Below are positions 2,892 to 38,994 of a stretch of 64,000 nt of DNA, in pieces. The stretch comes from Arcobacteraceae bacterium. Lineage in GTDB: Bacteria; Campylobacterota; Campylobacteria; Campylobacterales; Arcobacteraceae. The notes below the pieces were generated by a model. That model had not been told where the DNA came from. It saw only the letters and a program-made list of their open reading frames with translations, and made no database searches. The stretch lies in the NCBI GenBank assembly GCA_050292155.1, contig JBNKLC010000045.1, forward strand, positions 18,757 to 82,756. Direction: 5' to 3'. Positions within the stretch are counted from its first letter, which is position 1, and every line of letters begins with the position of its first letter. The translations under genes were made by a program, and so were the position numbers.

Positions 2892-3068
2892 AAAAAAGCT
2901 CCACCGTTTTTGAAAAATTTTGTTTGATTTGTAAAGAAGTACTTTATCAAAATTTACCTCTATCACAACTTAAAAAAAGGTCAATTTTATTTATACAAAA
3001 CTAAATTATTTTTAAAGTAGAAATTGGATACAATGTCTCTCAAAATTATACATATATAAGGAAAATTG

Positions 3069-21085: not shown

Positions 21086-22024
21086 GTGAGAGAATCTATC
21101 CAAAATTATATAAAGCAATTAGAAATGCTCTTAAGCTTTCAAGGGATATGCTGGTGGATAATAGATTACGAATACGACCCTGAATATTTTTACTGCAATG
21201 AATTAATGGAAGACACTTTTTCTTTGGATAAAAATTTAGAAAAACACTCCGTGGCACTTACCTGTCCGATTGCCGGAGATTATAACAAAAATATAGAACT
21301 TGCCGAAGATTCAAAAATAAAAGCGCAACTTGTATTTGATGAGTATAATCAATTGATAAAACAAGAGATAAATGAATATAAAAATCAATTTCCTTACTAT
21401 AATGAAAAATTAAATAAAACATTTTATTTTTCCAGTCGTGCAAAAGTGATAGAGCTTAATGAAAATAAAGAAGTATCAATCCTTTTTGGGATTATTGTAG
21501 ATATTACAAAACATCAAGAACAAAAAAAGGAATTTGAGAGACTCTCTCAAACCGATGCCCTTACAGGACTTTATAATAGATTTAAATTAGATGAATCTTT
21601 AAACATAGAAATAGATAGATATAAAAGGGAAAATAGACCGTTGAGTCTTATTATGATGGATATAGATCAATTTAAAAATATCAATGATCAGTTTGGACAT
21701 CTTATAGGAGATGAAGTGCTGAAACAAATTGCCGGTATATTAAAAGAGAATACAAGAAAAATTGATGTTATAGGAAGATGGGGTGGGGAAGAATTTATGA
21801 TAATTTGTCCAAATACCCCGATAAGAAATGCAAAAGAACTTGCCGAAAAATTGCGGATACGTATGCAAACAATTGCTTTTAAAACAAAAAAAGAGCAAAC
21901 GGCTAGTTTTGGGATAAGTGAATTTAAAAACGATGATAGTGTGGACTCTTTTATAAATAGAGCCGATAATGCCCTTTATCAAGCAAAAGCAAAAGGTAGA
22001 AATAGAGTTGAGGTTTTTAACTAA
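21086..22024 (+). CDS. diguanylate cyclase (PAS-like sensor + GGDEF domain)
   Basis: GGEEF active site (RWGGEEFMI) with an RKID I-site 5 residues upstream. N-terminal ~150 aa are PAS-like. GTG start. Confidence 0.85.
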   Translation: MRESIQNYIKQLEMLLSFQGICWWIIDYEYDPEYFYCNELMEDTFSLDKNLEKHSVALTCPIAGDYNKNIELAEDSKIKAQLVFDEYNQLIKQEINEYKNQFPYYNEKLNKTFYFSSRAKVIELNENKEVSILFGIIVDITKHQEQKKEFERLSQTDALTGLYNRFKLDESLNIEIDRYKRENRPLSLIMMDIDQFKNINDQFGHLIGDEVLKQIAGILKENTRKIDVIGRWGGEEFMIICPNTPIRNAKELAEKLRIRMQTIAFKTKKEQTASFGISEFKNDDSVDSFINRADNALYQAKAKGRNRVEVFN

Positions 22025-22054
22025 CTATTTCTAAATCTAAAAAAAAGGAAAAAA

Positions 22055-23035
22055 ATGTATAAAATAAAATCAATCTTACGATTGTTGTTATTATCTGTAA
22101 TGATAATTTCGTTTCAAGCCTGTTCTGTAAAACTACCATTGAAAGATGTTAAAGCATCTGACAATAGTTACAATGCAATTAATAAAAAAAGTGGTGTAAA
22201 AGAATTGAGTTTCAAAAATGGTTTAGAAGATAGTGATAAACTATTAATAGGTATATTTGAAAAAAATGTACATCTACTATATGATAAAAAAGATGTAGAT
22301 AGTTTTAATTTTATTAAAAATGCTATAGTTAATGAGATTCAGGCAAGAAGATTACCTATAAAAATAATGGATAATGTAAAAGATGCTATAAAATTGGATA
22401 AGTTTCAAATATATACTCACAGGTCAAGTGCTTTTTCTCCAACGGTAACATTTTCAATGTTAAAAATAGATGTTGAGATAGGAGAACAAAAGAAAAATTT
22501 TAGTTCAATTATAAAAAGAGGGAAAGTACCTATTTGGGAATTTGAAGAGGTTACAGATCCTTGTTTTAATGAACCCATTATGCTAATGGTAAAAGAGGTT
22601 GTTGCAAAAATCAATAAGCAATATTATAATTATAAACTAAGTGATGAAAAAGTAAATGAAGTTATTGCTAAAATAGAACAAGGAATTGAAAATAAAGATG
22701 AATTAAATTATCTTAATATTTATGAATTAGGTTTTTCAAATAATCCAAAAGTACTAGATACTTTAATTGCATATTCTAATAATTCGGATGAATATCTACG
22801 ATTGGCTTCAATCTCTATGTTAGGGCTAATAGGTGGAGAAAGTCAGTTTGAATATTTGATATCAAAATATAGAAACTCAAAGCTTTGGCAAGATAGAGCG
22901 TTAGCTTTAAAAGCCATAGCCGATATAGATACACCAAAAGCGAAAAAGTTTATTCAACAAGAATATAATTTGTGGAAGGTCCAAGATACAAAAGAAGGTA
23001 AATGGAATACGATGCTTATGGAAGTTTATATGTAA
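22055..23035 (+). CDS. lipoprotein with C-terminal HEAT-like repeats
   Basis: Lipobox MIISFQAC at the end of the signal peptide. C-terminal SDEYLRLASISMLGLIGG...QDRALALKAIADID resembles HEAT repeats. Confidence 0.55.
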   Translation: MYKIKSILRLLLLSVMIISFQACSVKLPLKDVKASDNSYNAINKKSGVKELSFKNGLEDSDKLLIGIFEKNVHLLYDKKDVDSFNFIKNAIVNEIQARRLPIKIMDNVKDAIKLDKFQIYTHRSSAFSPTVTFSMLKIDVEIGEQKKNFSSIIKRGKVPIWEFEEVTDPCFNEPIMLMVKEVVAKINKQYYNYKLSDEKVNEVIAKIEQGIENKDELNYLNIYELGFSNNPKVLDTLIAYSNNSDEYLRLASISMLGLIGGESQFEYLISKYRNSKLWQDRALALKAIADIDTPKAKKFIQQEYNLWKVQDTKEGKWNTMLMEVYM

Positions 23036-23193
23036 ACTTCTATAAACTAAAGATACAGTTTTAGAAAAATGATTCAACAGCAGAAATAGTTTTTAGAATA
23101 TTCTAAAATTTTTTTTATAACGTATAGATAATGGAATATAGTGTTATGTAAAGGTATAATAAACTATTAAAATTATATAGTACAAGGTATTTT

Positions 23194-23604
23194 ATGTTTA
23201 TTTTTGCTGTACAATCTGTAGCTGGTGGCTTTTTAGATGAGGATTTAAGTCATTTTAATAAATATTTTGATGATTGGTGTGCTCAATTTGATAATTATGA
23301 TGATGCGATGACTATCGTACAAACTCTTGAAAATCCAGAAAATATTGTTGTTGTGGAGATAACACCATTAAGTTATCCAAAATACTTTTTCCCATCCCTA
23401 CAAGGTACGGTTTATCTCACAAGACAAATTGAAGATAAAATTATCTGTGCAGTTGAGCCATTTATGGGTGCTAGTTTTAAAATAGCTATATGTGACCTTA
23501 AAACAAAGCATGTGAAATTTAAAAAAACCAATTATAAAACTATTGCAAATGTTGAGGGTGCTTTTACCCATTTTGGGGATAATTTGAATTTAATTGAAGA
23601 GTGA
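23194..23604 (+). CDS. hypothetical protein
   Basis: 136-aa ORF in an AT-rich islet. No motif recognised. Coding status rests only on ORF length. Confidence 0.35.
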   Translation: MFIFAVQSVAGGFLDEDLSHFNKYFDDWCAQFDNYDDAMTIVQTLENPENIVVVEITPLSYPKYFFPSLQGTVYLTRQIEDKIICAVEPFMGASFKIAICDLKTKHVKFKKTNYKTIANVEGAFTHFGDNLNLIEE

Positions 23605-23750
23605 AATAAATAAAACGTATCCAAAACAAATTTGTAATAAACTTTAGATACAAAAAAATAAAAAATAAAAAATAAAATTGCAAAATGCCAAGTTTTTAAT
23701 TAAACTTTTTAATTTATGATATGATTGATAAAAAGAGGGAGGATAAGCTT

Positions 23751-24599
23751 ATGACAAAAGATATTATTCAAACATTAACATCTGATTTTGAGTCATTTGT
23801 AAATAAAACAGAAGATGGTGTGGAGTTTTGGTTAGCTAGGGATTTGCAACACCTTTTAGGATATACAAAATGGGATAATTTTAAAAATGTAATTTTTAAA
23901 GCAAAAACTGCTTGTGAAGTTTCAGGATATGAAATAGCAGATCATTTTGCCGATGTCGGGAAAACGATAGAGATGCCTAAAGGAGCTGTAAAAGAGATTG
24001 ATGATTTAATGCTTACACGATATGCTTGTTATCTTATAGCTCAAAACGGCGATAGTAAAAAAGAGCAAATAGCATTTGCTCAAACGTACTTTGCTATTCA
24101 AACAAGAAAAGCTGAATTAATAGAGCAAAGAATACTAGAGTATGAAAGGGTAGAGGCAAGAGAAAAATTACAACAAACCGAAAAAGAGTTGTCAACGGTT
24201 ATCTATGAACAAACAGGCGGGAATCAAAATTTTGCAATTATTAGAAGTAAAGGAGATCAAGCATTATTTAATCATACTACGGCTCAAATGAAAGCAAAAT
24301 ATAAAATTAAAGAGAATAAACCATTGGCAGATTATATGCCTACGATTCTTCTAAAAGCTAAAGATTTTGCAACAGAAATCACTATCTATAATGCAAGAGA
24401 AAATAAAATGGATACAGAAAATAAAATTTCCAATGAACATATTACAAATAATAAAACAGTTAGAGATACGCTCATTTCAAGAGGGATTGTACCTGAAAAT
24501 TTACCACCGCAAGAAGATGTTAAAAAAGTAGAAAGAAAACTTAATTCTAATGATAAAAAAATGTTAAAAGATATTGGAGCGTTTAATAAAGAAGATTAG
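23751..24599 (+). CDS. dinD: DNA-damage-inducible protein D family
   Basis: EDGVEFWLARDLQHLLGYTKWDNFKNVI...LTRYACYLIAQNGDSKKEQIAFAQTYFAIQTRK matches the DinD N-terminal domain. ATG at 23751 is preceded by AGAGGGAGG. Confidence 0.75.
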   Translation: MTKDIIQTLTSDFESFVNKTEDGVEFWLARDLQHLLGYTKWDNFKNVIFKAKTACEVSGYEIADHFADVGKTIEMPKGAVKEIDDLMLTRYACYLIAQNGDSKKEQIAFAQTYFAIQTRKAELIEQRILEYERVEAREKLQQTEKELSTVIYEQTGGNQNFAIIRSKGDQALFNHTTAQMKAKYKIKENKPLADYMPTILLKAKDFATEITIYNARENKMDTENKISNEHITNNKTVRDTLISRGIVPENLPPQEDVKKVERKLNSNDKKMLKDIGAFNKED

Positions 24600-24613
24600 T
24601 TAAAATCAATTTA

Positions 24614-26534: not shown

Positions 26535-26924
26535 ATGGAACATTCTAACTTTGTGCATCCGTACTTCGGTGCTTTTGTTATGTTTGTATTAACATTTGGA
26601 GCGTTTATCGCTACAACGGTAGCGGCAAGATTTGTAAGTAGAAAACTTGCAAGAAGAAATACCGAAAAATTAAAAACTACACTGTATGAGTGTGGACCAG
26701 AGGTTACAAAACAGCCTAATACTATCTCGGTACAGTTTTATCTTATGGCACTTTTATTTATTTTATTTGATGTGGAGATTATCTTTATGTTTCCATGGGC
26801 AGTGGATTTTAAAGTGCTTGGATGGTTCGGTTTTATTGAGATGTTATTATTTATCTTATTATTGGCAATCGGATTTATCTACGCTTGGAAAAAAGGAGCA
26901 CTAGAATGGCACAGCATAAAGTAA
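26535..26924 (+). CDS. nuoA: NADH:quinone oxidoreductase subunit A
   Basis: 129 aa, 3 TM. YECGPE and [11 protein letters not shown] motifs. Confidence 0.92.
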
Positions 26925-27415
26925 ACTACTTTAGAGAAGGTGGAGAAGCGATAAAGCTAACTACTGTTGATAAAATAGTCAATTTTGGTAGAAGTAACTC
27001 TTTATGGCCTATGACTTACGGTCTTGCATGTTGTGCAATTGAGATGATGGCAAGTGGTGGTTCAAGGTTTGACTTTGATAGATTCGGTACGATCTTTAGA
27101 GCATCTCCAAGACAATCGGACGTTATCGTAGTTGCAGGAACTTTGACAAAAAAACACGCAGAATTTATGAGAAGATTATACGATCAAATGCCTGATCCAA
27201 AATGGGTAATCTCTATGGGATCATGTGCAAATACAGGCGGTATGTTTAATACTTATGCAACGGTTCAAGGTGTAGATAGGGTAATCCCAGTGGATATCTA
27301 TCTTCCAGGTTGTGCCCCTCGACCTGAGACTTTACAGTTTGCATTGATGATGTTACAAAAGAAAATAAGAAGAGAGCCTGCAGGTATGGCTCAAAGAGCA
27401 AAAAGGTTGATATAG
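26906..27415 (+). CDS. nuoB: NADH:quinone oxidoreductase subunit B
   Basis: [15 protein letters not shown] and LPGCAPRPE (N2 cluster ligands). ATG at 26906 is preceded by AAGGAG. Confidence 0.93.
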
Positions 27416-28237
27416 ATGAGAGCATATACATCAAAAGATAACGTACAAAAAAAATCGTACTACAACGATAGATTTTACGTAACACCGACACTTAAAAGAA
27501 AAAGTGTTTACGATGATTCTACCTTTAGCAGTGATTACGGTAGTTTAAAAAATATTGTAGAGATAAAAGAAGCTTATATTGAATTAGACCATTTGGTTGT
27601 TATTATAAATCCAGAGGAGAATATCAAAGCAATCGAACATTTAAAAAAGATTCGAGCTTACGATATGATGATGGAGCTTACGGCAGTTGATTATGTAGCT
27701 TCCAAGGGTGGTTTTGAGATAGTTTACGAACTTCTTTCAACTACAAAAAGAAAAAGAATCCGAGTAAAAGCTTTTATCAACAACGGCGACGCAATCAACT
27801 CTGTGGAAAAACTTTTTAGAATGGCAAACTTTAGTGAGCGTGAGATGTATGATATGTATGGAATCTACGTAAACAATCACTCTTACCTTAAAAGAATCCT
27901 TATGCCTGATGATTGGCAGGGACATCCTTTGCTTAAAACATATCCACTTCAAGGGGATGAAGCGTCAAATTGGTATGAGGTTGATAAGATTTTTGGTAAA
28001 AAAGCAAGAGATATTATCGGACCTGAACTTAGAGATGCAGCATGTGTAGATAGATATGATAGTGAAAGATTTGCAAGACTTGGTCATGAAGTTCCGTTTG
28101 GTACGGAGATTAGTGAAGGGAATGAACCTGATACACCTATCAGGTACCAAGAAGAGGGTGGAGTAAAACTCTTTGGTGCGACATTGGTTACACCGTTTGA
28201 TAAAAAAGAAACAAAACAATTGAAAGAGAGAAAGTAG
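27416..28237 (+). CDS. nuoC: NADH:quinone oxidoreductase subunit C
   Basis: FSEREMYDMYGIYV motif, 273 aa with terminal extensions. Confidence 0.88.
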   Translation: MRAYTSKDNVQKKSYYNDRFYVTPTLKRKSVYDDSTFSSDYGSLKNIVEIKEAYIELDHLVVIINPEENIKAIEHLKKIRAYDMMMELTAVDYVASKGGFEIVYELLSTTKRKRIRVKAFINNGDAINSVEKLFRMANFSEREMYDMYGIYVNNHSYLKRILMPDDWQGHPLLKTYPLQGDEASNWYEVDKIFGKKARDIIGPELRDAACVDRYDSERFARLGHEVPFGTEISEGNEPDTPIRYQEEGGVKLFGATLVTPFDKKETKQLKERK

Positions 28238-29464
28238 ATGCAAGTTACCAATAGATTAAAACCTTTCTTTGAAAATATTGCGTTTGAACGTGAAGATAAC
28301 ACAATGGTTGTAAACTTCGGTCCGCAACACCCTTCAGCTCACGGTCAGTTACGACTTATGCTTGAACTTCAAGGGGAAGAGGTAGTAAAAGCACATCCTG
28401 ATATCGGATATCTTCATAGAGGTATTGAAAAAATGGGTGAAAATATGATCTATAACGAATTCTTACCTACAACGGATAGAATGGATTATATTGCGGCAAC
28501 AGCCAATAACTACGGATATGCACACGCAGTTGAACAACTACTAGGCATTGAGGTTCCAAGACGGGCAGAGATTATTAGAACAATGTTGCTTGAGCTTAAT
28601 AGAATTATCTCTCATCTTTTTTGGTTGGCAACCCATGCACTTGATGTGGGTGCAATGTCTGTTTTCCTTTATTGTTTCCGTGAGAGAGAATTTGCAATGG
28701 ATTTGATGGAGGATTATTGTGGAGCTAGACTTACCCATTCGGCAGTTAGAATCGGTGGAGTTCCTTTAGATCTTCCTTTAGGATGGTTGGGAAATCTTAA
28801 AAAATTTATCGATACTTTAGATGAGCAGATTAATGTTTACGAAGGGCTTTTAACCGAAAATAGAATTTGGAAAATGAGACTTGAAAATGTAGGTACCTTA
28901 ACTCCTGAGACGGCAAAAGAGTGGGGATGCAGCGGACCTACCCTTCGAGGAAGCGGAGTAAAATGGGATTTACGAAAAGAGATGCCTTACGGTATCTATC
29001 CTGAACTTGATTTTAATATTCCTATTTCAGATAAATGTGATTCGTATGGAAGATATAAGTGTTATATGGCAGAGATGAGAGAATCTATGAAAATCTTAGA
29101 GCAGCTTATTCCTATGTACCATGAAAGCGATACACAGCTTATGGCTCATGCACCTCAGTATATCTCTGCAACAAAAGAGGATATGATGACGCAAAACTAC
29201 TCTTTGATGCAACACTTTGTCCTTGTAACACAAGGGATGAGACCACCTGTTGGAGAAGTGTATGTTGCGACAGAATCTCCAAAAGGGGAACTTGGGTTTT
29301 ATATTGTAAGTGACGGTTCGCCTTATCCATATAAATTAAAATGTCGGGCACCTAGTTTTTGGCATACTGGATTATTACAAGATTTACTACCGGGGCACCA
29401 ATTAGCCGATGTTGTTACTATTATCGGTAACCTTAATATTGTATTTGGGGAGATTGACAGGTAA
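28238..29464 (+). CDS. nuoD: NADH:quinone oxidoreductase subunit D
   Basis: [24 protein letters not shown], and C-terminal [14 protein letters not shown]. Confidence 0.94.
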
Positions 29465-29745
29465 TGAAACGATATGATTTAAGAGGGCATAAAGAGAATT
29501 TTATCCCTAGAATGGTTGAATTGATGGGTAGTGAAATCAAAGAGGGAGAAAATGCTGTTTTTCTTTTTGAGATTGGAGATTTTAGTTCTGTCCAAGCAGC
29601 GGCAGATGTAGTAAAAGAGAATAACTGGAGATTAATGAATTCGTTAAAATTCAATGAAGTTGATTGGACTATTATCGTAAAAAAAGAGCAGCCTCCTATC
29701 GATGAGCTTCCTGAAACTACGCAAGAGGAAGAAGCTACAGAGTAA
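29464..29745 (+). CDS. small Cys-free protein occupying the nuoE position (Cj1575c/HP1264-like placement)
   Basis: 93 aa with no cysteine, so no 2Fe-2S site. ATG overlaps the nuoD stop (TAATG). Acidic C-terminal tail. Its position matches the NuoE-replacing small ORF of Campylobacter and Helicobacter. Confidence 0.65.
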   Translation: MKRYDLRGHKENFIPRMVELMGSEIKEGENAVFLFEIGDFSSVQAAADVVKENNWRLMNSLKFNEVDWTIIVKKEQPPIDELPETTQEEEATE

Positions 29746-29771
29746 CGGCTCTATAGTTAAAGGAATTTGTT

Positions 29772-31784
29772 TTGAGTAAAGTGTATTATTCTAATTGGCA
29801 GGGTGAAGTAATAGATAATAGAGGTGTGTCCGTTGAAGAGTGGGCTGAATCTTCTGTTAAATTACCTGTTAGTTATACAAAAGAATCGGCAACAAAAGCA
29901 TTTGTCGGATGGGACGGATTTGCTCTTTTTGATGAAACTGTAGATGTTGTAAAACTTGCGATGAATTATGCAAGGCAATATCAAGAGTACAGTGAAGCTT
30001 GTGGAAGATGTACACCTGGACGTTGGGGTGGACAAATCTTGTTTGATATGATTGATAAAATTGCCAGAGGCGAAGGGGAGTATAGTGATTTAGCACATAT
30101 CAAAGAGGTAAGCAGCACTATGCAGCAAACCAGTAAATGTGAAATCGGTAAAACGGTTCCAACTCCGATTTTAGGGATGATTGGATCATTTGAAGAGCAA
30201 TTTATTTCACTCATTAAAAATAAAACCAAATCGCCGTGGTATGAAAATGACGATTCAAAATATATTGCAAATGTAACTGCTCCTTGTACAGATATGTGCC
30301 CGGCTCACGTAGATATCCCGGGATATATTGAAGGGGTTAGGGAGCTTGATTTTGAAAACTCTTTAAAGTCTACAAGACAAACTATGCCTTTGGCTCATAC
30401 GTGCGGAAGAGTTTGTCCCCACCCTTGTGAAGATGCGTGTAGAAGAGGAAATCTTGACGAACCTATTTCTATTATGGAACTTAAAAGAATCGGAGCAGAT
30501 TATGAAAGCGATCATGAACTCGAATGGTTCCATCCAATTAAGCCCAAAAAACCAAAAAATGACGGAAAAAAAGTAGCAATTATCGGTGCGGGACCTGCTG
30601 GACTTACGGCAGCTTATTATCTTGGAGTTGAAGGTATCGAAGTAAAGATTTTTGAAGAGCTTCCCGTACTTGGCGGAGAGGTTGCCGTGGGAGTACCGGA
30701 ATATAGAATGCCGGTTGATAAATATAATATAGATATTAAGCTGGTTGAAGATTTACCTACGGTTGAAATTATTAGAAACCATAGAGTAGACAGTGAGAGA
30801 CTTACAGAGATTTATGAAGAGTTTGATGCAACACTTCTTGCTTTTGGTGCACGTCTTTCTAAAAAAATTAGATGTGAAAATGAAGATCCAAGTTACGAGG
30901 GTTACTGGGGAGCAATCGATATGCTCGATAAGGTAAACCTTTGGAATAAGTATGGTATCGGAGAATCTGCAGCAAATGACCTTAAAGATAAAACCGTTGT
31001 ATGTGTAGGTGGTGGATTTACCTCTATGGACGTTGTAAGATGTTCTATTAGAGAGGGTGCAAAAAGAGTTGTAATGCTTTATAGAAGAGATGAAAAAACA
31101 ATCATTAGAAATACGACACTTGAAGAGTACACCGAAGCTGTTGAAGAGGGAGTAGAGTTTATTTTCTATTCTGCAATCGATACGATTATTGATGACAATG
31201 GAAAGATAACGGCAGTTATCGTGGATAAATACGAGCAGGTTCCAGATCCTGATGGTGGAAGACCGCAACTTGTAAAAATTGAAGGGGCTTCTGAAAAAAT
31301 CGAGTGTGATTATGTAGTTCCTGCGGTATCTCAAGCACTTGATTTACAAATTTTACCTAAAGAGTGGGATATAGAGATGACATCGTGGTCATCGATCCAA
31401 ACCAACGGGAAAGATTATATGACAAATAAGCCTGGACTTTTTGCAGCAGGAGACTGTGAATACGGTCCAATGACCATCGTAAATGCAGTAGGTCAAGCAA
31501 AACGTGCCGCTTCGGTAATCGGTAGATATATTTATGACGGTAAGATTTCATTATTGGATAATGAGATTATGGAAGACCATATGAATAAAATGAAAGTCTA
31601 CAATAAAGCCGAAAAAATCACGGGATGGATGCCAGGACTTCCAAGAGAAGAGAGTGAAAAACTTTCAGCAGCAGTAAGACGAGATAATAACAAAGAGGTA
31701 AATCTTGGATTCACTGCAGAGGAAGCTAGAGCTGAAGCTGAGCGATGTATGCGGTGTTATTATTTAGGGATGGTGGCAGTATGA
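29772..31784 (+). CDS. FAD/FeS oxidoreductase in the nuoF position: NuoF-C-terminal-like domain fused to a GltD/NfnB-type NAD(P)H-binding module
   Basis: N-terminal ACGRCTPGRWGG...KCEIG resembles the NuoF N3-cluster domain, with the third Cys replaced by Gly. This is followed by CTDMCPAHVDIPGYI, CGRVCPHPCEDACRRG, VAIIGAGPAGLTAAYYL, LGGEVAVGVPEYRMP, VVCVGGGFTSMDVV and FAAGDCEYGP. C-terminal tail AEERCMRCYY-type CxxC. TTG start. Confidence 0.75.
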   Translation: MSKVYYSNWQGEVIDNRGVSVEEWAESSVKLPVSYTKESATKAFVGWDGFALFDETVDVVKLAMNYARQYQEYSEACGRCTPGRWGGQILFDMIDKIARGEGEYSDLAHIKEVSSTMQQTSKCEIGKTVPTPILGMIGSFEEQFISLIKNKTKSPWYENDDSKYIANVTAPCTDMCPAHVDIPGYIEGVRELDFENSLKSTRQTMPLAHTCGRVCPHPCEDACRRGNLDEPISIMELKRIGADYESDHELEWFHPIKPKKPKNDGKKVAIIGAGPAGLTAAYYLGVEGIEVKIFEELPVLGGEVAVGVPEYRMPVDKYNIDIKLVEDLPTVEIIRNHRVDSERLTEIYEEFDATLLAFGARLSKKIRCENEDPSYEGYWGAIDMLDKVNLWNKYGIGESAANDLKDKTVVCVGGGFTSMDVVRCSIREGAKRVVMLYRRDEKTIIRNTTLEEYTEAVEEGVEFIFYSAIDTIIDDNGKITAVIVDKYEQVPDPDGGRPQLVKIEGASEKIECDYVVPAVSQALDLQILPKEWDIEMTSWSSIQTNGKDYMTNKPGLFAAGDCEYGPMTIVNAVGQAKRAASVIGRYIYDGKISLLDNEIMEDHMNKMKVYNKAEKITGWMPGLPREESEKLSAAVRRDNNKEVNLGFTAEEARAEAERCMRCYYLGMVAV

Positions 31785-34057
31785 GTGAACGGGTACAACA
31801 TAGAGGAAAACTAATTACTATCACTATTGATGGACGTGAATGTCAAGGTGTTTACGGTCAAACTATTTTAGAGATTGCAAGAAAAAACGATATTTATATC
31901 CCTACAATGTGTTACCTTACAAAGGTTTCGCCTATAACATCGTGTAGGATGTGTGTGGTTGATGTTGCAGGTGTTGAAGGTAATGTTCTTTCGTGCCAAG
32001 AAAAAGCGGTGGATGGTGCCGTAATCACTACAAATAACGAAGAGCTTTTCAGACATAGACAAAATATTATGAAAATGTATGATGTAAATCATCCGTTGCA
32101 GTGTGGAGTTTGTGATAAAAGTGGAGAGTGTGATCTTCAAAATAAAACTTTGGAATTTGGTGTCGATTCACAAGAATTTGCATTAAAAGAACCTGCAAGA
32201 AAAAAGAAAAAATGGGGTATCTTAGGATATGATCCGTCACTTTGTATCATGTGTGAAAAATGTGTTCATACGTGTAACGAAGTAATTGGAAGTGCAGCTC
32301 TTTATGTAAAACCGGGTGGTTATAAATCTATTATCGATATTAAGATGAGTAGGTGTGAACAGTGTGGAGATTGTATCTCCGTATGCCCTGTCGGAGCACT
32401 TGTTTCAAATGAATACAAATACACTTCAAATGCTTGGGAATCGAAAAAAATCCCTGCTACATGTGCACATTGTAGTAGTGGATGTTCTCTTTATTATGAT
32501 GTAAAACATGCCGGTGTTTCTAATCCTTATGAGAAAAAAATCACGAGAGTAACAAACGACTCTGAATTTAGCGAACTTTGTGGAGCCGGTAGATTTGGAT
32601 TTGAGTTTGAAAATAAAGGAGATGTAAAAGATCCTGAGAAGTTAGCTCGTGCGGTGGAAGCTATCAAATCAAGTGATGTAATCTCTTTTAATTCTTATAT
32701 TACAAACGAAGAAGCTTTTATATTGCAAAAAATTAAAGAGCAAACGGGGATTAGACTTTGGAATGACGATGCAAATTTTTATAAAAAATTTATGGATGAG
32801 TATTCAAAAGTAAGCGGTCGAACTTTATATAGTGCAACAAACGAAACTATAAGAGATAGTGATGCAGTTATTATGATAGGAACAAGAATTTCAAGAGATA
32901 ATCCAGTGGTAAAATATGCTGCAAATATTGCCGTCAAAACAAAAAGGGCAAACTTTATCTATATGCACCCGATTGATGATATAAATCTGCAAAACAAATA
33001 CAACCAATTTGTAAAATATGAAGCGGGAAGCGAAGAGGGTGTAATTGCTCTTCTTGCTTCATATTTGGTTGAAAATGTTCCAAGTAAATATGAGAGTTTT
33101 TTTGATGAACTTGATATCGGTAATTTAAGCGGAGATTGTAATGTGGGCGAAGAGGAAATGGAGGCTGTTGTTAAAAAACTTACAAGAAGTAAGAATAAAA
33201 CTTTAGTAATCGGCGAAGACCTTTATGCCCATAAAAGAGCGAAAAACATTGCCAAAATTGTAGGGCTTATTGAAAAGTACACTGACTTTAACGTGATGAT
33301 TATCCCATCTCAAACAAATACTTTAGGGGTAAGTTTGATTTGTGATTTGGATGAAAAGGGCGGCGATAAAGTTGTGGGGTATAATGAAGTTGGAGATTTT
33401 ATCATTTCAAGCGAGGGTCTTGGAGATATAGAGGTACCTGCACTGAACCAACAAGAGGGGACTTTTACTTCGATTGATAAAAAAGTTCTGAATACAAATG
33501 TTGCTTTGGCTTTTGAGGGGTATTGTTTAAATGATATTGCCAATGCCCTTTTAGGTACAACAGTTGCACATACGATTGATTATACTAAAAATTTACCATC
33601 CTCAAAAGGGTTTCAAGCAGTGGAATTCGATTCTTTAGGAAATGGATACGATAGATATGGAAACGACCAAAGAGGATATAAATTAGAAGAGGGTGTTAAT
33701 GAATCTGAGATTGTAGAGATTGAAGAGATAGCTGAAATTGGAACTTATAACGGTACGGTTATTTATAGATGTGAACCGTTACATCAATTTAATCCAAATA
33801 CCGCAAAGTCGTTAAAACTTCAAACAGACAAAAGTCTTAGAGGGAGTGCAGCCTTTGCAACTGCTGCAAAGATAAAAGACGGCGATACAGTTACGATAAG
33901 CTATAATAACAAGTTTGTAACAAGAAAATTTAAAATAGAGAAGGCGATCAAAGGTACGATTGCATTATGTCCAACATTTGATGATCCATTGGAAGATGGA
34001 GCAGTAACTTTTGGATATAGATTTAAGCAAGTACAAATTAATAAGGTTGAAGCATAA
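31781..34057 (+). CDS. nuoG: NuoG-like FeS subunit, paralog 1 (N7-type Cys motif intact)
   Basis: 2Fe-2S CYLTK..CRMCVVDV..LSCQ, HPLQCGVCDKSGECDLQ, CIMCEKCVHTC, CEQCGDCISVCPVGAL, plus CAHCSSGCS...ELCGAGRF. ATG at 31781 overlaps the upstream stop (ATGA). Confidence 0.85.
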   Translation: MSERVQHRGKLITITIDGRECQGVYGQTILEIARKNDIYIPTMCYLTKVSPITSCRMCVVDVAGVEGNVLSCQEKAVDGAVITTNNEELFRHRQNIMKMYDVNHPLQCGVCDKSGECDLQNKTLEFGVDSQEFALKEPARKKKKWGILGYDPSLCIMCEKCVHTCNEVIGSAALYVKPGGYKSIIDIKMSRCEQCGDCISVCPVGALVSNEYKYTSNAWESKKIPATCAHCSSGCSLYYDVKHAGVSNPYEKKITRVTNDSEFSELCGAGRFGFEFENKGDVKDPEKLARAVEAIKSSDVISFNSYITNEEAFILQKIKEQTGIRLWNDDANFYKKFMDEYSKVSGRTLYSATNETIRDSDAVIMIGTRISRDNPVVKYAANIAVKTKRANFIYMHPIDDINLQNKYNQFVKYEAGSEEGVIALLASYLVENVPSKYESFFDELDIGNLSGDCNVGEEEMEAVVKKLTRSKNKTLVIGEDLYAHKRAKNIAKIVGLIEKYTDFNVMIIPSQTNTLGVSLICDLDEKGGDKVVGYNEVGDFIISSEGLGDIEVPALNQQEGTFTSIDKKVLNTNVALAFEGYCLNDIANALLGTTVAHTIDYTKNLPSSKGFQAVEFDSLGNGYDRYGNDQRGYKLEEGVNESEIVEIEEIAEIGTYNGTVIYRCEPLHQFNPNTAKSLKLQTDKSLRGSAAFATAAKIKDGDTVTISYNNKFVTRKFKIEKAIKGTIALCPTFDDPLEDGAVTFGYRFKQVQINKVEA

Positions 34058-36507
34058 TGGACAATATGATTAATATAACTATTAACGGCAAAGAGTGTCA
34101 AGCAAAAGAGGGAGAGTTTATCCTGAACGTTGCACGGGCGAACGGTATCTTTATACCTGCTGTTTGTTACCAAACAAAATGTACACCAACTCTAGCGTGT
34201 AGATTGTGTTTGGTTGAAGCAGATGGGAAGCAAGTATACGCTTGTAATGCAAAAAGTAAAGATGGGATGGTTATCGAAGTTAATACACCAAACATCGAAC
34301 AAGAAAGACGTGCAATTATGGAGGTTTACGATGTAAACCATCCTCTGCAGTGTGGAGTATGTGACCAAAGCGGAGAGTGTGAACTTCAAAACTATTCGCT
34401 TTATATGGGCGTAGATTCACAAAACTATGCGGTTAAAGACGTGCATAGACCAGCATCAAATTGGGGAGTAATGAAATATGACCCGGGTCTTTGTATCGTG
34501 TGTGAAAAGTGTGTGACTATCTGTAAAGACATGATAGGATCAAATGCCCTTGGAACCGTAAAAAGAGGTGCGGATGCCCTTGATAAAGCATATAAAGAAG
34601 CTATGCCAAAAGATGCGTATGCGATGTGGAATAAACTGAATAAAAACCTTATTGGATTTGAGGAAGAAAAATGTATCGATTGTGGAGAGTGTATCTCTGT
34701 TTGTCCTGTCGGTGCACTTGTAAGTTCGGATTTCCAATATAAATCAAATGCTTGGGAGCTTACAAAAATTCCTGCATCAAATCCATACAGCTCAGATTGT
34801 TCATTAATGTACTACGAAGTAAAACACGACTCAATTGAAAACAATAAAGAGAAAAAAATATATAGAGTAACAAATGATGCACACTATGTATCTTTAAACG
34901 GAGCGGCTCGATTTGGATTTGACTATGTAAATAAAGCGGATAAAGATGAAGCGGCATTTACAAAAGCGGTAGAAGCATTACAAGGTGCAGATTCAATTTT
35001 ATTTAATTCATTTATTACAAATGAAGAGGCAAAAATTCTTCAATCTATCAAAGAAAAAACGGGTGCAAAACTTATAAATATGGATGCATTCAAATTCAAA
35101 GAGTTTTTAAATAATTACTCTAAAATAACTGGAGAAAGTTTTTATAAAGGAACTTTAGAAGATATTCACAACAGTGATTTTTTAATCTCTCTTGGATCAT
35201 TTTTAAAATCAGATGCTCCGAGTGTAAAATATGCGTTCAACAATGCAATAGGGATGAATAAAGGTGCAGGACTTTATTTTCATCCAATGGGAGATAAGCA
35301 TATCGAAGGACTTGGGAAAAAAGGCAAAACAATTGAGACAATTGCTACAAATCCTTTATCCGAAGAAGCCGTATTATATTTTATCCTTGATCAATTTGGA
35401 GAAAATCTCCCTGAAGATATTGCAAAATATGTTGCAGGTTTTCAAGAACAAAGAACAAAAACTGTAACGGAAACAATCAAAGAAACAGTAGAAGAAACGG
35501 TTGTCGATCCGGAAACGGGAGAGGAATCTGTTCAAAAGAAAGTTGTCCCTAAAAAAGTTGAAAGTGAAATTACTTACAAATACACAAAACTGCTTGAGCT
35601 GATGGGGGCTGATGAATCATTGCTTGAAACAATCGAAGCGATGCTTGCAAAAAAAGAAAAATTCAGCTTAATTATCGGAGAAGATTGTATCAATCATCCA
35701 AATAGTGAAAATATAGCAAAACTTGTCGGAATGGTTGAAAAATATACGAAATTTACGGTCCTTATTATACCGTCGCAAACAAATACTTTAGGGGTAAGCT
35801 TACTTTGCGATCTTGATGTGATAGCAAACGGTACAACGGTTGGATACAATATGGCAGCAGATTATCAAATGAGTGCGTTAGGCGACGGAGATATCGATAT
35901 GCCTGTACTTTCACAACAAGAGGGGACTTTTGTAAATATCGATAAAAGAGTTGTCCCTACAAATGCGGCAGTTGCTTATAACGGATATTCTCTCAACGAT
36001 ATTGCAAATGAAATTTTAGATAATAAAAAAGAAAATACCATTGAATATACAACTGAAATATTTAAAGGGATTGCATTTGATGATTTGGAAAATCGGTATA
36101 CAAATGATAGAGTCGAACATAGAGGATATATTTTAGAAGCGTTACAAACCGAAACAAACGAGAGTGTGAATACCGAGATAAAATCACTTGAAAAATCCCA
36201 AAGTGAGTATATAATTTACAATGCAAATCCAATAAATCAATTTAATGAGTTTAGTGCGCTCTCCCATCAACTAAAAGATGATATAGTTGCTTTACATATT
36301 TCAGATGAGTTGGCTGCAAAACTTGAAGTTGAGGCAAACGGAAGCGTAGAAGTAACGGCAAATAAAACAACTATTGCATTACCTGTAGTAGTTGATAACA
36401 ACCTTATCGGGGAGATTGCCTATGTTCCGACATTTGAAAAAAATTCTCAAACTAAAAACTTATTTGACAACTGTAGATTTGCTACAGCAAATATAAAAAA
36501 GGTGTAA
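34057..36507 (+). CDS. nuoG: NuoG-like FeS subunit, paralog 2 (N7-type Cys motif lost)
   Basis: CYQTK..CRLCLVEA..YACN, HPLQCGVCDQSGECELQ, CIVCEKCVTIC, CIDCGECISVCPVGAL. The N7 region reads ASNPYSSDCS...SLNGAARF. ATG overlaps the paralog 1 stop (TAATG). Confidence 0.85.
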   Translation: MDNMINITINGKECQAKEGEFILNVARANGIFIPAVCYQTKCTPTLACRLCLVEADGKQVYACNAKSKDGMVIEVNTPNIEQERRAIMEVYDVNHPLQCGVCDQSGECELQNYSLYMGVDSQNYAVKDVHRPASNWGVMKYDPGLCIVCEKCVTICKDMIGSNALGTVKRGADALDKAYKEAMPKDAYAMWNKLNKNLIGFEEEKCIDCGECISVCPVGALVSSDFQYKSNAWELTKIPASNPYSSDCSLMYYEVKHDSIENNKEKKIYRVTNDAHYVSLNGAARFGFDYVNKADKDEAAFTKAVEALQGADSILFNSFITNEEAKILQSIKEKTGAKLINMDAFKFKEFLNNYSKITGESFYKGTLEDIHNSDFLISLGSFLKSDAPSVKYAFNNAIGMNKGAGLYFHPMGDKHIEGLGKKGKTIETIATNPLSEEAVLYFILDQFGENLPEDIAKYVAGFQEQRTKTVTETIKETVEETVVDPETGEESVQKKVVPKKVESEITYKYTKLLELMGADESLLETIEAMLAKKEKFSLIIGEDCINHPNSENIAKLVGMVEKYTKFTVLIIPSQTNTLGVSLLCDLDVIANGTTVGYNMAADYQMSALGDGDIDMPVLSQQEGTFVNIDKRVVPTNAAVAYNGYSLNDIANEILDNKKENTIEYTTEIFKGIAFDDLENRYTNDRVEHRGYILEALQTETNESVNTEIKSLEKSQSEYIIYNANPINQFNEFSALSHQLKDDIVALHISDELAAKLEVEANGSVEVTANKTTIALPVVVDNNLIGEIAYVPTFEKNSQTKNLFDNCRFATANIKKV

Positions 36508-36510
36508 AAG

Positions 36511-37470
36511 ATGGATAATGATATTATAATGACGCTTGTTAAAGTATTAGTTATTTTACTTGTATTTTCTGCTTTAGCAGGGTTTACGACTTATATTGAA
36601 AGAAAAGTCTTGGCATTTATGCAAAGACGACCCGGACCTATGCATGTGGGACCGTTTGGACTTTTACAAATTTTAGCAGACGGTGCAAAACTCTTTACAA
36701 AAGAAGATTTTATCCCGCAACATGCGAATAGACTTATTTTTATGATTGCACCTGTTATCACTGCTGCGACTGCATTTATTGCAATGACGGCAGTTCCTTT
36801 TGTACCGGGTGTAATCGTATCGGATGTAAATGTCGGGGTACTTTTTGTCCTTGGTGTGATGGCAACCGGACTTTACGGACCACTTCTTGGAGGGATGTCT
36901 CAAGCAAATAAATGGGGACTTCTTGGAGGAGCTAGAACTGCGATTCAGCTTCTTTCTTACGAGGTTGTAACGGGACTTTCACTTTTAGCTCCTCTTATGT
37001 TGGTTGGTTCATTATCTTTAATCGATATCAATAACTACCAAGCAGGTGGAGTCGGCAATTGGATTCTTTGGACGCAACCTGTCGCATTTTTTTTATTTTT
37101 AATTGCAGGTTATGCAGAGACAAATAGAACACCGTTTGATCTTTTAGAGCATGAAGCGGAAGTTATCGCAGGATATGCAACTGAGTATTCTGGAATGAGA
37201 TGGGGTATGTTTTTTATCGGGGAGTATGCAAATCTATTTACAATTTCATTTTTAACTTCACTTATCTTTTTAGGTGGATTTAACGATTTATGGTTTATCC
37301 CAGGAGCAATTGCAATTATACTTAAAGTTATGTTTTTAATTTTCTTATTCCTTTGGACAAGAGCTTCTTGGCCGCACGTAAGACCTGATCAACTTATGTG
37401 GTTATGTTGGAAAATATTAATGCCTTTAGCCCTATTAAATATTTTAGTTACGGCTATCGTGGTAATTTAG
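36511..37470 (+). CDS. nuoH: NADH:quinone oxidoreductase subunit H
   Basis: ERKVLAFMQRRPGP and GYATEYSGMRWGMFFIGEY, 8 TM. Confidence 0.93.
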   Translation: MDNDIIMTLVKVLVILLVFSALAGFTTYIERKVLAFMQRRPGPMHVGPFGLLQILADGAKLFTKEDFIPQHANRLIFMIAPVITAATAFIAMTAVPFVPGVIVSDVNVGVLFVLGVMATGLYGPLLGGMSQANKWGLLGGARTAIQLLSYEVVTGLSLLAPLMLVGSLSLIDINNYQAGGVGNWILWTQPVAFFLFLIAGYAETNRTPFDLLEHEAEVIAGYATEYSGMRWGMFFIGEYANLFTISFLTSLIFLGGFNDLWFIPGAIAIILKVMFLIFLFLWTRASWPHVRPDQLMWLCWKILMPLALLNILVTAIVVI

Positions 37471-37477
37471 GGGTTGA

Positions 37478-38104
37478 ATGATGAGTTTTAAAGAATTAAA
37501 AGAGAGAAACGTAGGATCTCAAGAATATATGATGATGGATATTAAAGAGTATCCAAAATCGGGATGGCAGGAATTTAAACAGATCGTTGGTCGAGGTTTA
37601 AAAAACGAGCTTTTTAAAGGTCTTGGGATTACTTTTAAGATAATGAAAGAGGTGGTATTTCAAGGGAAAACCCATAATACACTTTATCCAATTGAAAAAC
37701 TTCCAATAAGCCCAAGATATAGAGCAGTACATAAACTATTAGCATTACTTGAAAGCGGTCATAATAGATGTATCGGATGTGGACTTTGTGAAAAAATCTG
37801 TATCGCTAAATGTATTAGAATGGATACAAAAATCGATGAAAATTCAAGAAAAGAGGTTAGCGAGTATACAATTAATCTCGGACGTTGTATTTTTTGTGGA
37901 TATTGTGCAGAAGTTTGTCCAGAACTTGCGATTGTTCACGGAGGAAGATATGAAAATTCCAGTGAACAAAGGGAGCATTTTGTCTTAAAAGAGGATCTTT
38001 TAACACCGTTTGACAAATTGGCAGCCCAAGTTGAATACGACGGTTTTGGATCGGTTTCACAAGATGCAGATAAAAAAATCAAAAAAACGCCATTGGCATA
38101 TTAA
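37478..38104 (+). CDS. nuoI: NADH:quinone oxidoreductase subunit I
   Basis: Two 4Fe-4S motifs, CIGCGLCEKIC and CIFCGYCAEVCP, with an N-terminal extension. Confidence 0.92.
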   Translation: MMSFKELKERNVGSQEYMMMDIKEYPKSGWQEFKQIVGRGLKNELFKGLGITFKIMKEVVFQGKTHNTLYPIEKLPISPRYRAVHKLLALLESGHNRCIGCGLCEKICIAKCIRMDTKIDENSRKEVSEYTINLGRCIFCGYCAEVCPELAIVHGGRYENSSEQREHFVLKEDLLTPFDKLAAQVEYDGFGSVSQDADKKIKKTPLAY

Positions 38105-38692: not shown

Positions 38693-38994
38693 GTATTACG
38701 TTAAATGATTATTTAATACTTAGTACTATTATCTTTATGATAGGGATGTACGGAGCATTAAGAAGAAAAAATTTATTAATGTTGTTTTTCTCAACGGAGA
38801 TAATGTTAAATGCAGTCAATATCGGAATGGCTGCAATTTCTAAATTTCACGGCGATCTTACGGGGCAGATGTTTGCATTTTTTGTAATTGCAATTGCTGC
38901 AAGTGAAGTTGCTATTGGATTGGGATTATTGATTTTATGGTTTAAAAGACACAATACTATCAATCTTGATTCACTACAAAGTATGAAGGGGTAA
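38689..38994 (+). CDS. nuoK: NADH:quinone oxidoreductase subunit K
   Basis: 101 aa, 3 TM, FFSTEIMLNAVN and AASEVAIGLGLL. Confidence 0.9.
   Translation: MSITLNDYLILSTIIFMIGMYGALRRKNLLMLFFSTEIMLNAVNIGMAAISKFHGDLTGQMFAFFVIAIAASEVAIGLGLLILWFKRHNTINLDSLQSMKG

Follow-up and report, generated by a model that had tools for sequence, protein, structure and literature searches.

A Circularly Permuted GltD/NfnL-Like Flavo-Iron–Sulfur Protein in the NuoF Slot of a Campylobacterota Complex I Operon: A Putative NADP(H) Arm

Introduction

How do electrons enter complex I when its operon encodes neither NuoE nor NuoF? This question is raised by a 64,000-nucleotide (nt) stretch of contig JBNKLC010000045.1 from an Arcobacteraceae bacterium (assembly GCA_050292155.1, forward strand, positions 18,757–82,756), hereafter called the window. 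The + strand of the window carries a complete nuo operon that begins with nuoA at 26535 and ends with nuoN at 43966; in it, the slot between nuoD (28238–29464) and two nuoG paralogs consists of two open reading frames (ORFs) for proteins of 93 and 670 amino acids (aa). A canonical NuoE is absent, as the 93-aa protein has no Cys for the N1a cluster and matches no thioredoxin-like 2Fe–2S family in Pfam or NCBIfam. A canonical NuoF is likewise absent: the model TIGR01959 reaches 57.8 bits against a cut-off of 558.65, and only profile positions 281–407 of 410 are covered. The remaining nuo subunits, A–D and H–N, are all present in the window.

The answer that we favor, as probable but with some reserve, sees the 670-aa protein as an arm that replaces NuoF and is wired into complex I through one of the two NuoG paralogs, NuoG1: an NADP(H):iron–sulfur (Fe–S) oxidoreductase that works reversibly and does not bifurcate. 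The way in which reductant is coupled to Campylobacterota complex I bears on the supply of NADPH and ferredoxin in sulfur-oxidizing autotrophs that use the reductive tricarboxylic acid (rTCA) cycle (Sulfurimonas, Sulfurovum), and on the use of flavodoxin by Campylobacter jejuni and Helicobacter pylori.

Domain Architecture of the 670-aa Protein

The 670-aa protein (29772–31784, + strand) combines a NuoF-type N3 domain, a GltD/NfnL-type module for FAD and NADPH, and a circularly permuted Fe–S domain for two clusters. The N-terminal domain (aa 1–155; 29772–30236, +) contains the Fe–S region of NuoF (PF10589 NADH_4Fe-4S, aa 63–144, E = 1.3e-18), and aa 25–152 match, among PDB sequences, the C-terminal N3 domain of HydB, HoxF, FdsB, and NuoF chains. 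The main part of a second Fe–S domain (aa 169–248; 30276–30515, +) matches PF14691 Fer4_20 over profile positions 29–111 only, and is followed by the Rossmann domains for flavin adenine dinucleotide (FAD) and NADP(H) (aa 266–576; 30567–31499, +; PF07992 Pyr_redox_2, E = 7e-25). The C-terminal element (aa 637–663; 31680–31760, +; EEARAEAERC659MRC662), when the last 27–34 residues are scanned alone, matches Fer4_20 profile positions 2–28 (E = 1.5e-4), which is the stretch that opens the Fe–S domain in GltD, NfnL, and DPD. Because the C-terminus by itself supplies the missing start of the profile, the circular permutation of the Fe–S domain is real at the sequence level. The EA.RCxxC element also follows the flavoprotein body in NfnA and StnC (alignments with 9bov_A and 8oh5_C), and the permutation is thus a family trait.

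Solved structures point to the same relatives. In a search of PDB sequences, aa 166–663 match best the NfnA protein of C. saccharolyticus (Csac; 9BOV_A, E = 3e-78), StnC of S. ovata (8OH5_C, E = 3e-69), and NfnA of T. sibiricus (9N5U_A), with NfnB/NfnL, GltD, and DPD ranking behind them; no PDB chain in this search spans both halves of the protein. The AlphaFold2 model, built from an 80-sequence alignment, is one compact fold with a pLDDT of 91.3 and a pTM of 0.89. Its top Foldseek matches are the NfnL-like domains of 9bov_A, 8oh5_C, and 9n5u_A (E about 1e-40, namely 3e-41; approximately 500 aligned columns), followed by NfnB/NfnL, GltD, and DPD at approximately 440 columns and a TM-score, normalized to the target, of approximately 0.78. 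The nearest NCBIfam model, NF009410 (PRK12771, "NAD(P)-binding protein"), scores 378.6 bits, below its cut-off of 516, and the protein is therefore placed in the architecture family rather than in curated NF009410. Homologs are named "FAD-dependent oxidoreductase" by NCBI and "formate dehydrogenase (NADP+) beta subunit" by JGI.

The original prediction had described the product as a fusion of a NuoF tail with a GltD/NfnB-type flavo-Fe–S module, with permuted cluster ligands and a Gly in place of the third N3 ligand. All motifs quoted there are found in the translation and the domain matches bear out both the fusion and the permutation, although the latter is a trait of a very large family. The prediction also named the condition that would have made the protein commonplace, namely identity with the HP1265/Cj1574c type (NuoY) of H. 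pylori and C. jejuni. HP1265 (328 aa), with which the comparison was made, has a best BLASTP E value of 6.3, and the 670-aa protein is not HP1265-like. A fusion of NuoY with a GltD-like protein is ruled out by this lack of similarity and by the search with the N-terminal 165 aa, whose 150 best representatives include no NuoY-like protein; the seven short matches to the N-terminal domain that were read are truncated copies of the full architecture.

One Campylobacterota variant (P0125, 962 aa, a cluster of eight ENA sequences) has a low-complexity insertion of approximately 300 residues between the NuoF tail and the GltD-like body.

Cluster Ligands and the NADP(H)-Binding Site

Ligand conservation was counted over 126 Campylobacterota homologs of the 670-aa protein. 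In the N3-like site, C77, C80, and C123 are invariant in 126/126 (nt 30000–30020 and 30138–30140), and the position of the third canonical ligand, G83, is Gly in all 126 as well, so that the motif reads CxxCxxG...C instead of CxxCxxC...C. None of these homologs has a compensating Cys for G83. Members of the family from outside Campylobacterota have Cys at this position in 11 of the 14 aligned (two further sequences in the comparison set are HydB-like and are not counted among the 14), and each of the three with Gly (P0135, P0144, P0157) has an extra Cys elsewhere, in a CC doublet or a CxxC motif. Residue C21 of NuoG1 was considered as a fourth ligand from a neighboring subunit and is ruled out, as it is absent from Wolinella NuoG1 and its position drifts in NuoG2.

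The remaining Cys are predicted to hold two further clusters. All six residues of C172-x3-C176-P and C211-x3-C215-x3-C219-x3-C223 are invariant in 126/126, as are C659 and C662, which makes exactly eight invariant Cys, enough for two [4Fe–4S] clusters. The proximal cluster (A7) of Csac NfnA is liganded by C108, C147, C151, and K170 (PMC11829005). When these published ligands are mapped through the alignment with the PDB chain, the proximal [4Fe–4S] cluster of the 670-aa protein should use C176, C215, and C219, together with C211 (more probably) or K238, and the distal [4Fe–4S] cluster should use C172, C223, C659, and C662. In NfnA/StnC the proximal cluster has a Lys ligand, whereas the 670-aa protein has an invariant fourth Cys (C211) and also conserves the corresponding Lys, K238.

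The motifs for FAD and NADP(H) are intact (GAGPAG, VGGGFTSMD, FAAGDC). Y437-R438-R439 (nt 31080–31088) is invariant in 80/80 aligned family members, an alignment with 88 invariant columns, and corresponds to LYRR of StnC and NfnA. NADPH has been modelled in the StnC structure (PMC10482914), and a 2019 preprint equates the YRR motif with the 2′-phosphate-binding Tyr310/Arg311–312 of T. maritima NfnB (bioRxiv 10.1101/717884).

Operon Coupling, NuoX, and Synteny

The genes of the nuoD–nuoX–670–nuoG1 stretch are translationally coupled. The TAA of nuoD overlaps the ATG of the 93-aa gene, here called nuoX (TAATG); the 670-aa gene has a TTG start codon with the Shine–Dalgarno sequence AAAGGA 7–8 nt upstream; and its TGA overlaps the ATG of nuoG1 (ATGA), which places the true start of nuoG1 at 31781 and not at 31745 as in the mechanical ORF list. 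Accordingly, nuoG1 (758 aa) extends over 31781–34057 (+) and nuoG2 (816 aa) over 34057–36507 (+).

The 93-aa protein (29464–29745, +) contains no Cys, as the original prediction had stated, and was presented there as filling the nuoE slot. It is not an unknown protein: it matches PF16514 (NADH-UOR_E) over the full profile (positions 1–74 of 74; 118.6 bits, cut-off 25, E = 1.4e-34), and its residues 1–75 match the nuclear magnetic resonance structure of H. pylori HP1264 (PDB 2LXR, E = 2e-18). These matches assign it to the HP1264/Cj1575c "NuoX" family as an ordinary member, and a Cys-free protein in this slot is therefore the standard condition in Campylobacterota. The gene also directly follows nuoD in H. 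pylori, Wolinella, and Sulfurovaceae. The window protein differs only at its C-terminus, where an acidic tail of 17 residues extends the 76-aa core. NuoX C-termini vary widely: H. pylori NuoX has 76 aa, the window protein adds its short acidic tail (29689–29745), and a NuoX at a metagenome locus (L071:5501–6268) reaches 255 aa with a long, KAEAEAK-rich low-complexity extension.

Gene order is conserved at 15/15 genome loci, which comprise Arcobacteraceae and Campylobacterota metagenome-assembled genomes (MAGs), Arcobacter nitrofigilis, and one "Helicobacteraceae" MAG (L014). The complete order nuoA-B-C-D-X-670-G1-G2-H-I is present at 13 of them; the other two (L012, L013) are truncated at the 5′ end, so that their sequence starts within the 670-aa gene, and show the same order over what remains. 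The 670-aa protein is 73–90% identical at Arcobacteraceae-like loci, with 66% for the "Helicobacteraceae" MAG, and its conservation across the genome loci is similar to that of NuoD and above that of NuoX and NuoG1. The scan of genome contigs with the 670-aa protein alone yielded close relatives only, and wider contexts were taken from the contigs that encode more distant homologs and from a metagenome scan. An identical gene order is found in Wolinella succinogenes and in one Sulfurovaceae MAG, and the metagenome scan, which was made with a NuoX alignment and returned 80 loci, adds 47 more. The arrangement nuoD-X-670-G1-G2-nuoH is called type A here, and the window belongs to it.

Two observations on the operons of single lineages may be added. 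In W. succinogenes (L022:10445–12234), NuoG2 is encoded by two called genes (309 aa and at least 428 aa) separated by a 155-nt gap, which may be a real split, a frameshift, or an annotation artifact. In an older survey, Arcobacter is listed with a full 14-subunit complex I (PMC3144371); a second, canonical nuo operon in some Arcobacteraceae would mean that the variant operon is not their sole complex I.

A Wider Family With NuoG-Type Partners

The strongest argument for a docking role of the N-terminal domain comes from the gene neighborhoods of the wider family. The N-terminal 165 aa of the 670-aa protein were searched against 1.84 billion representatives. The full architecture is found in distant relatives of approximately 640–685 aa and 27–35% identity, whose N-terminus is the NuoF tail and whose C-terminal sequence includes EAERCLRCYR, and a search with the family profile yields at least 8000 candidates, the 8000 scored ones all having E ≤ 1e-30. 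The 670-aa protein has every element by which the family is recognized (PF10589, Fer4_20 29–111, Pyr_redox_2, and Fer4_20 2–28 with RCxxC) and lies within its length range of about 640–690 aa.

All gene neighborhoods that were read have, immediately downstream, a gene whose product combines Fer2_4, NADH-G_4Fe-4S_3, and Fer4 domains, and this partner rule holds in 11 independent contexts besides the window. The partner is NuoG1 in the window, at the 15 genome loci, in Wolinella, and in Sulfurovaceae. It is an FdhA-like Mo enzyme at two-gene loci (L019/L020, L019:6999–11561, beside MTHFR; L025:6001–10154), the [FeFe]-hydrogenase HydA at L024:3557–7354, where the cluster of the family protein has Turicimonas muris as named members, and a HoxU-like protein of 240 aa in operons for 2-oxoacid:ferredoxin oxidoreductase (POR; L026:3023–8705, L027:2959–8680). 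In three further nuo operons from MAGs (L017/L018, L017:4455–15992; L028:4458–15959; L029:4161–15971), the partner is NuoG itself. The order in these operons is nuoA-B-C-D-[652–663 aa]-nuoG (864–889 aa)-H-I-J-K-L; NuoE, NuoF, and NuoX are all absent from them, their NuoG is the only one and has Mo-enzyme domains, and the N3 motif of the family proteins (L017/L028/L029) is the canonical four-Cys form. L017/L018 and L029 are labelled "Deltaproteobacteria bacterium" by NCBI, and L028 is nearest in the tree to a Desulfobacterales MAG protein.

NuoF docks on NuoG in canonical complex I (Nqo1 on Nqo3). Given the partner rule, the NuoF-tail domain would be a docking and wiring element for NuoG-type N-termini, and the distribution of partners suggests that the family of approximately 650-aa proteins is a general NADP(H) adaptor for enzymes with such an N-terminus. 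In a rough neighbor-joining (NJ) tree without bootstrap, the Campylobacterota clade groups with FdhA-partnered members, apart from the clade of Deltaproteobacteria/Desulfobacterales MAG nuo operons, and the Campylobacterota and FdhA-partnered members have two motif states in common: their third N3 position is Gly, and C211 is present. The module was therefore likely recruited into complex I twice independently, in Campylobacterota and in the Deltaproteobacteria/Desulfobacterales MAGs; a single recruitment is not favored by this tree and these motif states.

The NuoG Paralogs and the Origin of NuoY

Both NuoG1 and NuoG2 match NF006305 (879 and 1081 bits, respectively, the latter in one full-length stretch), and both have motifs for a [2Fe–2S] cluster, an N5-type cluster, and two ferredoxin-type [4Fe–4S] clusters in an eight-Cys ferredoxin-type domain. 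In NuoG1 these are C44, C55, C58, and C72 for [2Fe–2S]; H104, C108, C111, and C117 for the N5-type cluster; and C155–165 and C192–202 for the ferredoxin-type clusters. Its N7-type motif (C228, C231, C235, C267) is complete in 17/17 sequences, whereas that of NuoG2 is lost (SNPYSSDC...LNGAARF). NuoG2 also has an insertion of approximately 22 residues between its two halves. The single NuoG of H. pylori scores 481 bits against NuoG2 and 425 bits against NuoG1, which identifies NuoG2 as its ortholog and NuoG1 as an extra paralog co-occurring with the 670-aa gene. The idea that NuoG1 is an FdhA of foreign origin, acquired along with the 670-aa gene, is ruled out: NuoG1 is approximately 40% identical to, and co-linear with, Campylobacterota NuoG of the NuoG2 type, and approximately 30% identical to FdhA-like proteins or NuoG proteins of Deltaproteobacteria MAGs. 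A domain search with NuoG1 gives no significant Molybdopterin match and only a weak Molybdop_Fe4S4 match (E = 0.0017).

The origin of HP1265, the protein that follows NuoX in H. pylori, is explained by NuoG1. HP1265 (L021:5234–6220) scores 67.6 bits against a hidden Markov model (HMM) of 17 NuoG1 sequences (E = 3e-23 for one target) and −0.5 bits against an HMM of 17 NuoG2 sequences; its aa 45–199 correspond to NuoG1 354–510 and its aa 262–308 to NuoG1 684–731. HP1265 is thus homologous to, and co-linear with, the C-terminal portion of NuoG1 that has no clusters; it is a truncated NuoG1. The same condition is common in the metagenome loci. Beside the 47/80 type-A loci (X, 670, G1, and G2), 26/80 are of a second type (type B), in which NuoX is followed directly by a protein of approximately 270 aa and then by NuoG2, with no 670-aa gene; five of the 80 are too short to classify and two are ambiguous. 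The type-B protein corresponds to NuoG1 ~355–510 plus ~655–757, without the Fe–S domains, and is up to 55% identical to NuoG1 of the window (e.g., L045:3579–4415; type-B loci lie within L036–L087). A longer NuoG1 remnant, corresponding to NuoG1 280–756, is found at L070.

NuoG1 thus lacks its Fe–S N-terminus exactly where the 670-aa gene is absent, namely at the 26/80 metagenome loci and in H. pylori. In an NJ bootstrap analysis of G1, Y, and G2 proteins (249 shared columns, 100 replicates), G1 plus Y are split from G2 in 100/100 replicates, and one Y clade is nested with window-like NuoG1 in 79/100. Monophyly of all Y proteins is found in 0/100 replicates, which rules out a single origin. This loss pattern, together with the polyphyly of Y within NuoG1, suggests that the 670-aa gene and the Fe–S N-terminus of NuoG1 were lost jointly and more than once, and this joint loss appears to be a recurrent event that gives rise to the H. 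pylori-type operon. No earlier statement that NuoY is derived from NuoG1 by truncation was found in the open-access literature.

A Proposed Mechanism and Its Alternatives

In the mechanism that we propose, NADPH would reduce FAD in the GltD/NfnL-like body of the 670-aa protein, and electrons would leave FAD singly via the proximal and then the distal [4Fe–4S] cluster to a three-Cys N3-like cluster in the N-terminal NuoF-tail domain. This domain would dock on the NuoG-type N-terminus of NuoG1, like NuoF on NuoG, and the onward path would be NuoG1/NuoG2, NuoI, NuoB, and menaquinone. Driven in reverse by proton-motive force, the same arm would produce NADPH. The portion that the type-A enzyme has in common with the H. 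pylori-type enzyme consists of NuoX, NuoG2, and the NuoG1 C-terminal domain. The complex I of C. jejuni is described with the same X/Y/G layout (PMC3144371) and is reported to oxidize flavodoxin (Weerakoon and Olson, 2008, as cited in bioRxiv 10.1101/717884 and PMC3144371). The type-A enzyme probably has a second, low-potential donor/acceptor site in addition to its NADPH arm. Domain content, motif conservation, operon coupling, synteny, the partner rule, the loss pattern, and the homology of Y proteins to NuoG1 are seen in the sequences; cofactor occupancy, the ligand assignment, docking, NADPH in preference to NADH, the direction of flow, and the second donor site are predicted.

Several points weigh against this mechanism. 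The three-Cys site may hold a [3Fe–4S] cluster, may be completed by a ligand other than Cys, or may be empty, and the wire could be broken there. The predicted specificity for NADPH rests on one motif. R312 (PEYRM), the equivalent of the Arg discussed for bifurcation in NfnB, is conserved, and for this reason the sequence leaves room for bifurcation. One peripheral arm would have to seat two NuoG paralogs, and no biochemical or structural data on nuo-embedded members of the family were found in the open-access literature.

Bifurcation has been proposed for the complex I that contains Suden_1824 by McNichol and Sievert (bioRxiv 10.1101/717884). In such a bifurcating or confurcating module, FAD or a junction of clusters in NuoG would split or merge electron pairs, so that quinol/quinone would be obligatorily coupled to both NADP(H) and ferredoxin/flavodoxin. 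Homology of the 670-aa protein to NfnB/NfnL of the bifurcating NfnAB/NfnSL and the conserved Arg of the PEYR motif are consistent with this proposal; the two NuoG paralogs, with nine predicted clusters, could make a branched path, and rTCA autotrophs with a type-A operon need both NADPH and reduced ferredoxin (bioRxiv 10.1101/717884). However, in the closest solved relatives, NfnA and StnC, NADPH delivers its electrons to an FAD that terminates a linear Fe–S chain, and this FAD has been shown or argued to be non-bifurcating (PMC10482914, PMC11829005), which is why we favor a non-bifurcating arm. These later structures make the proposal of the preprint less likely. Moreover, the operon encodes, from nuoD to nuoH, neither an NfnA/NfnS (PyrK-like) partner nor a HydB/HydC-like module with flavin mononucleotide (FMN), and the same protein family serves simple two-subunit enzymes. 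Bifurcation is thus considered unlikely here, and of the two couplings envisaged in the original prediction, to NAD(P)H via FAD or to a confurcating-type module, the first is supported by the predicted FAD/NADP(H) module and the second is not favored. An arm of the same architecture could also use NADH, or both nucleotides, and would then be a functionally ordinary NADH dehydrogenase input. GltD-like modules occur in NADH- and NADPH-dependent enzymes alike and the nearest NCBIfam model is named no more narrowly than for NAD(P) binding, but the invariant Y-R-R, which the preprint equates with the 2′-phosphate residues of NfnB (bioRxiv 10.1101/717884) and which aligns with NADPH-binding StnC and NfnA, and the NADP+ in the name given by JGI make this rather improbable.

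The remaining two explanations would detach the module from catalysis by complex I. The 670-aa protein and NuoG1 might form a separate, soluble, degenerate FdhAB-like oxidoreductase that is co-transcribed with the nuo genes without being attached to complex I, as two-gene pairs of FdhB-like and FdhA-like proteins do exist and NuoG1 is a full-length extra paralog. Against this, the two genes are always found within the nuo operon, flanked by nuoD/nuoX and nuoG2/nuoH, and stop and start codons overlap there; NuoG1 has no significant match to the Molybdopterin domain; and in the Deltaproteobacteria/Desulfobacterales MAGs the partner is the operon's sole NuoG. In addition, type-B operons keep the cluster-free C-terminal remnant of NuoG1 in the same slot, which argues that this domain is a structural part of the complex, and a soluble enzyme is very unlikely. 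Alternatively, the module could be a regulatory or protective appendage, such as a redox sensor or an electron overflow sink, with flavodoxin or ferredoxin as the real donor, as reported for C. jejuni. NuoX and NuoG2 are indeed common to the H. pylori-type operon, whose dependence on flavodoxin is reported for C. jejuni, the arm has been lost repeatedly while the operon was kept, and the three-Cys site is unusual. This role is nevertheless hardly to be expected of a protein that is among the best conserved of the operon and in which all catalytic motifs are invariant.

Comparison With Known Systems

The closest described system is that of Sulfurimonas denitrificans. According to the preprint, NuoF is replaced by the NfnB-like Suden_1824, which shares 33% identity with NfnB of T. 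maritima, retains the residues for NADP(H) and the clusters, and occurs together with two copies of NuoG, and this composition is said to be conserved across Sulfurimonas and Sulfurovum; Weerakoon and Olson (2008) are credited there with first noting the non-canonical NuoEF and the duplicated NuoG (bioRxiv 10.1101/717884). In earlier surveys, the label for Sulfurovum and Nitratiruptor was "12-subunit with a NuoG-like protein" (PMC3144371). The complex I of Suden_1822–1824 follows the same operon logic as the window (non-canonical NuoE/F slots, an NfnB-like protein, and two NuoG), and orthology is supported by the identical synteny in the "Helicobacteraceae" MAG, the Sulfurovaceae MAG, and Wolinella; the window differs in coming from an Arcobacteraceae-like genome. 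The "third solution" for electron entry announced in the original prediction is consequently not new, and the window locus is best classed as a further case, in Arcobacteraceae, of a kind already recognized from genomes. The NuoF tail, the three-Cys site, the permutation, the FdhB-like context, and the link to NuoY are absent from the account of Suden_1824 in the parts of the preprint available to us.

Other systems share parts of the arrangement. The complex I of H. pylori resembles that of the window in NuoX family and operon position, with its single NuoG corresponding to NuoG2, whereas HP1265 is unlike the 670-aa protein and the H. pylori type has no FAD/NADPH module. NfnA of the Bfu type (C. 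saccharolyticus 9BOV, T. sibiricus 9N5U) and StnC (S. ovata 8OH5) have the permuted order and LYRR, and in them, as in the proposed arm, a FAD/NADPH site feeds a NuoG-type cluster chain. However, their module lies inside a NuoG-like polypeptide, whereas that of the 670-aa protein is a separate polypeptide with a NuoF tail; they are soluble and work with an FMN-containing, HydB/HydC-like bifurcating core, whereas the 670-aa gene belongs to the operon of a membrane complex. NfnB/NfnL, GltD, and the N-terminal half of DPD have the same FAD/NADPH two-Rossmann fold and two [4Fe–4S] clusters, but with the canonical Fer4_20 order, without a NuoF tail, and with NfnA/NfnS, GltB, and the DPD C-terminal half as partners. 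Canonical NuoF (Nqo1, 51 kDa) shares its last ~125 residues with the 670-aa protein, i.e., the end of the ubiquitin-like domain and the four-helix N3 bundle; the 670-aa protein lacks its FMN/NADH Rossmann domain. FdhB, the beta subunit of NADP+-dependent formate dehydrogenase (Moorella thermoacetica Moth_2312–2314 type), gives the 670-aa homologs their name in the JGI database. Loci with FdhB-like and FdhA-like genes are the closest to the Campylobacterota clade in the rough NJ tree, and both have Gly at the third N3 position, but the partner of the 670-aa protein is a catalytically degenerate NuoG paralog and not a Mo/W formate dehydrogenase.

As far as the open-access literature goes, four elements appear to be new: the logic of the NuoF tail as an adaptor across enzyme classes, the nuo variant of Deltaproteobacteria/Desulfobacterales MAGs, the invariant three-Cys site, and the recurrent truncation of NuoG1 as the source of NuoY-type proteins. 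No description of the deltaproteobacterial nuo variant or of a partner rule for FdhB-like adaptors was found in that literature.

Other Genes of the Window

Upstream of the variant input module, the operon encodes the core quinone-module and membrane subunits nuoA (26535–26924; PF00507), nuoB (26885–27415; PF01058), nuoC (27416–28237; PF00329), and nuoD (PF00346). Downstream of nuoG2 are nuoH (36511–37470; PF00146), nuoI (37478–38104; Fer4 dicluster), nuoJ (38108–38692; PF00499), nuoK (38689–38994; PF00420), nuoL (38997–40943), nuoM (40956–42482; assigned by position and size only), and nuoN (42482–43966), with PF00361/PF00662 as the matches for the nuoL/nuoN group, all on the + strand.

Just upstream of the nuo region, a patch at 22001–24600 has a GC content of 27%, compared with approximately 35%, and lies beside the gene for a BRO-N domain protein (23721–24599); it may be a small mobile or phage-derived insertion. 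Elsewhere in the window, two GAPDH paralogs (3066–4064 and 5295–6308) flank pgk (4092–5288). The second GAPDH is much more divergent from the Pfam models, and its nucleotide specificity may differ.

Implications for Electron Entry Into Complex I

A wider proposal, which we put forward tentatively and as possible rather than probable, is that the 670-aa protein and the Fe–S N-terminus of NuoG1 form a detachable NADP(H) arm on a flavodoxin/ferredoxin-dependent core. In that case the type-A enzyme would accept electrons from two donors and, in reverse and driven by proton-motive force, would make NADPH and reduced ferredoxin/flavodoxin for use in the rTCA cycle, and the H. pylori-type enzyme (including that of C. 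jejuni, according to the literature) would have arisen from it repeatedly, by amputation. Complex I of the Deltaproteobacteria/Desulfobacterales MAGs would have acquired this adaptor independently; in other settings it would have been joined to hydrogenases, formate dehydrogenase-like enzymes, and 2-oxoacid oxidoreductases.

The identification of NuoY-type proteins as NuoG1 remnants gives an evolutionary order, with type A first and repeated amputation to type B thereafter. It also leads to a structural prediction, in which the C-terminal domain of NuoG1 would be the anchor, and its N-terminus together with the 670-aa protein the removable wire. Should the 670-aa protein prove to be an NADP(H) arm, then a large part of the phylum, and with it a clade of Deltaproteobacteria/Desulfobacterales MAGs, would have a complex I that acts as an NADPH:menaquinone oxidoreductase or, in reverse, as an NADP+ reductase.

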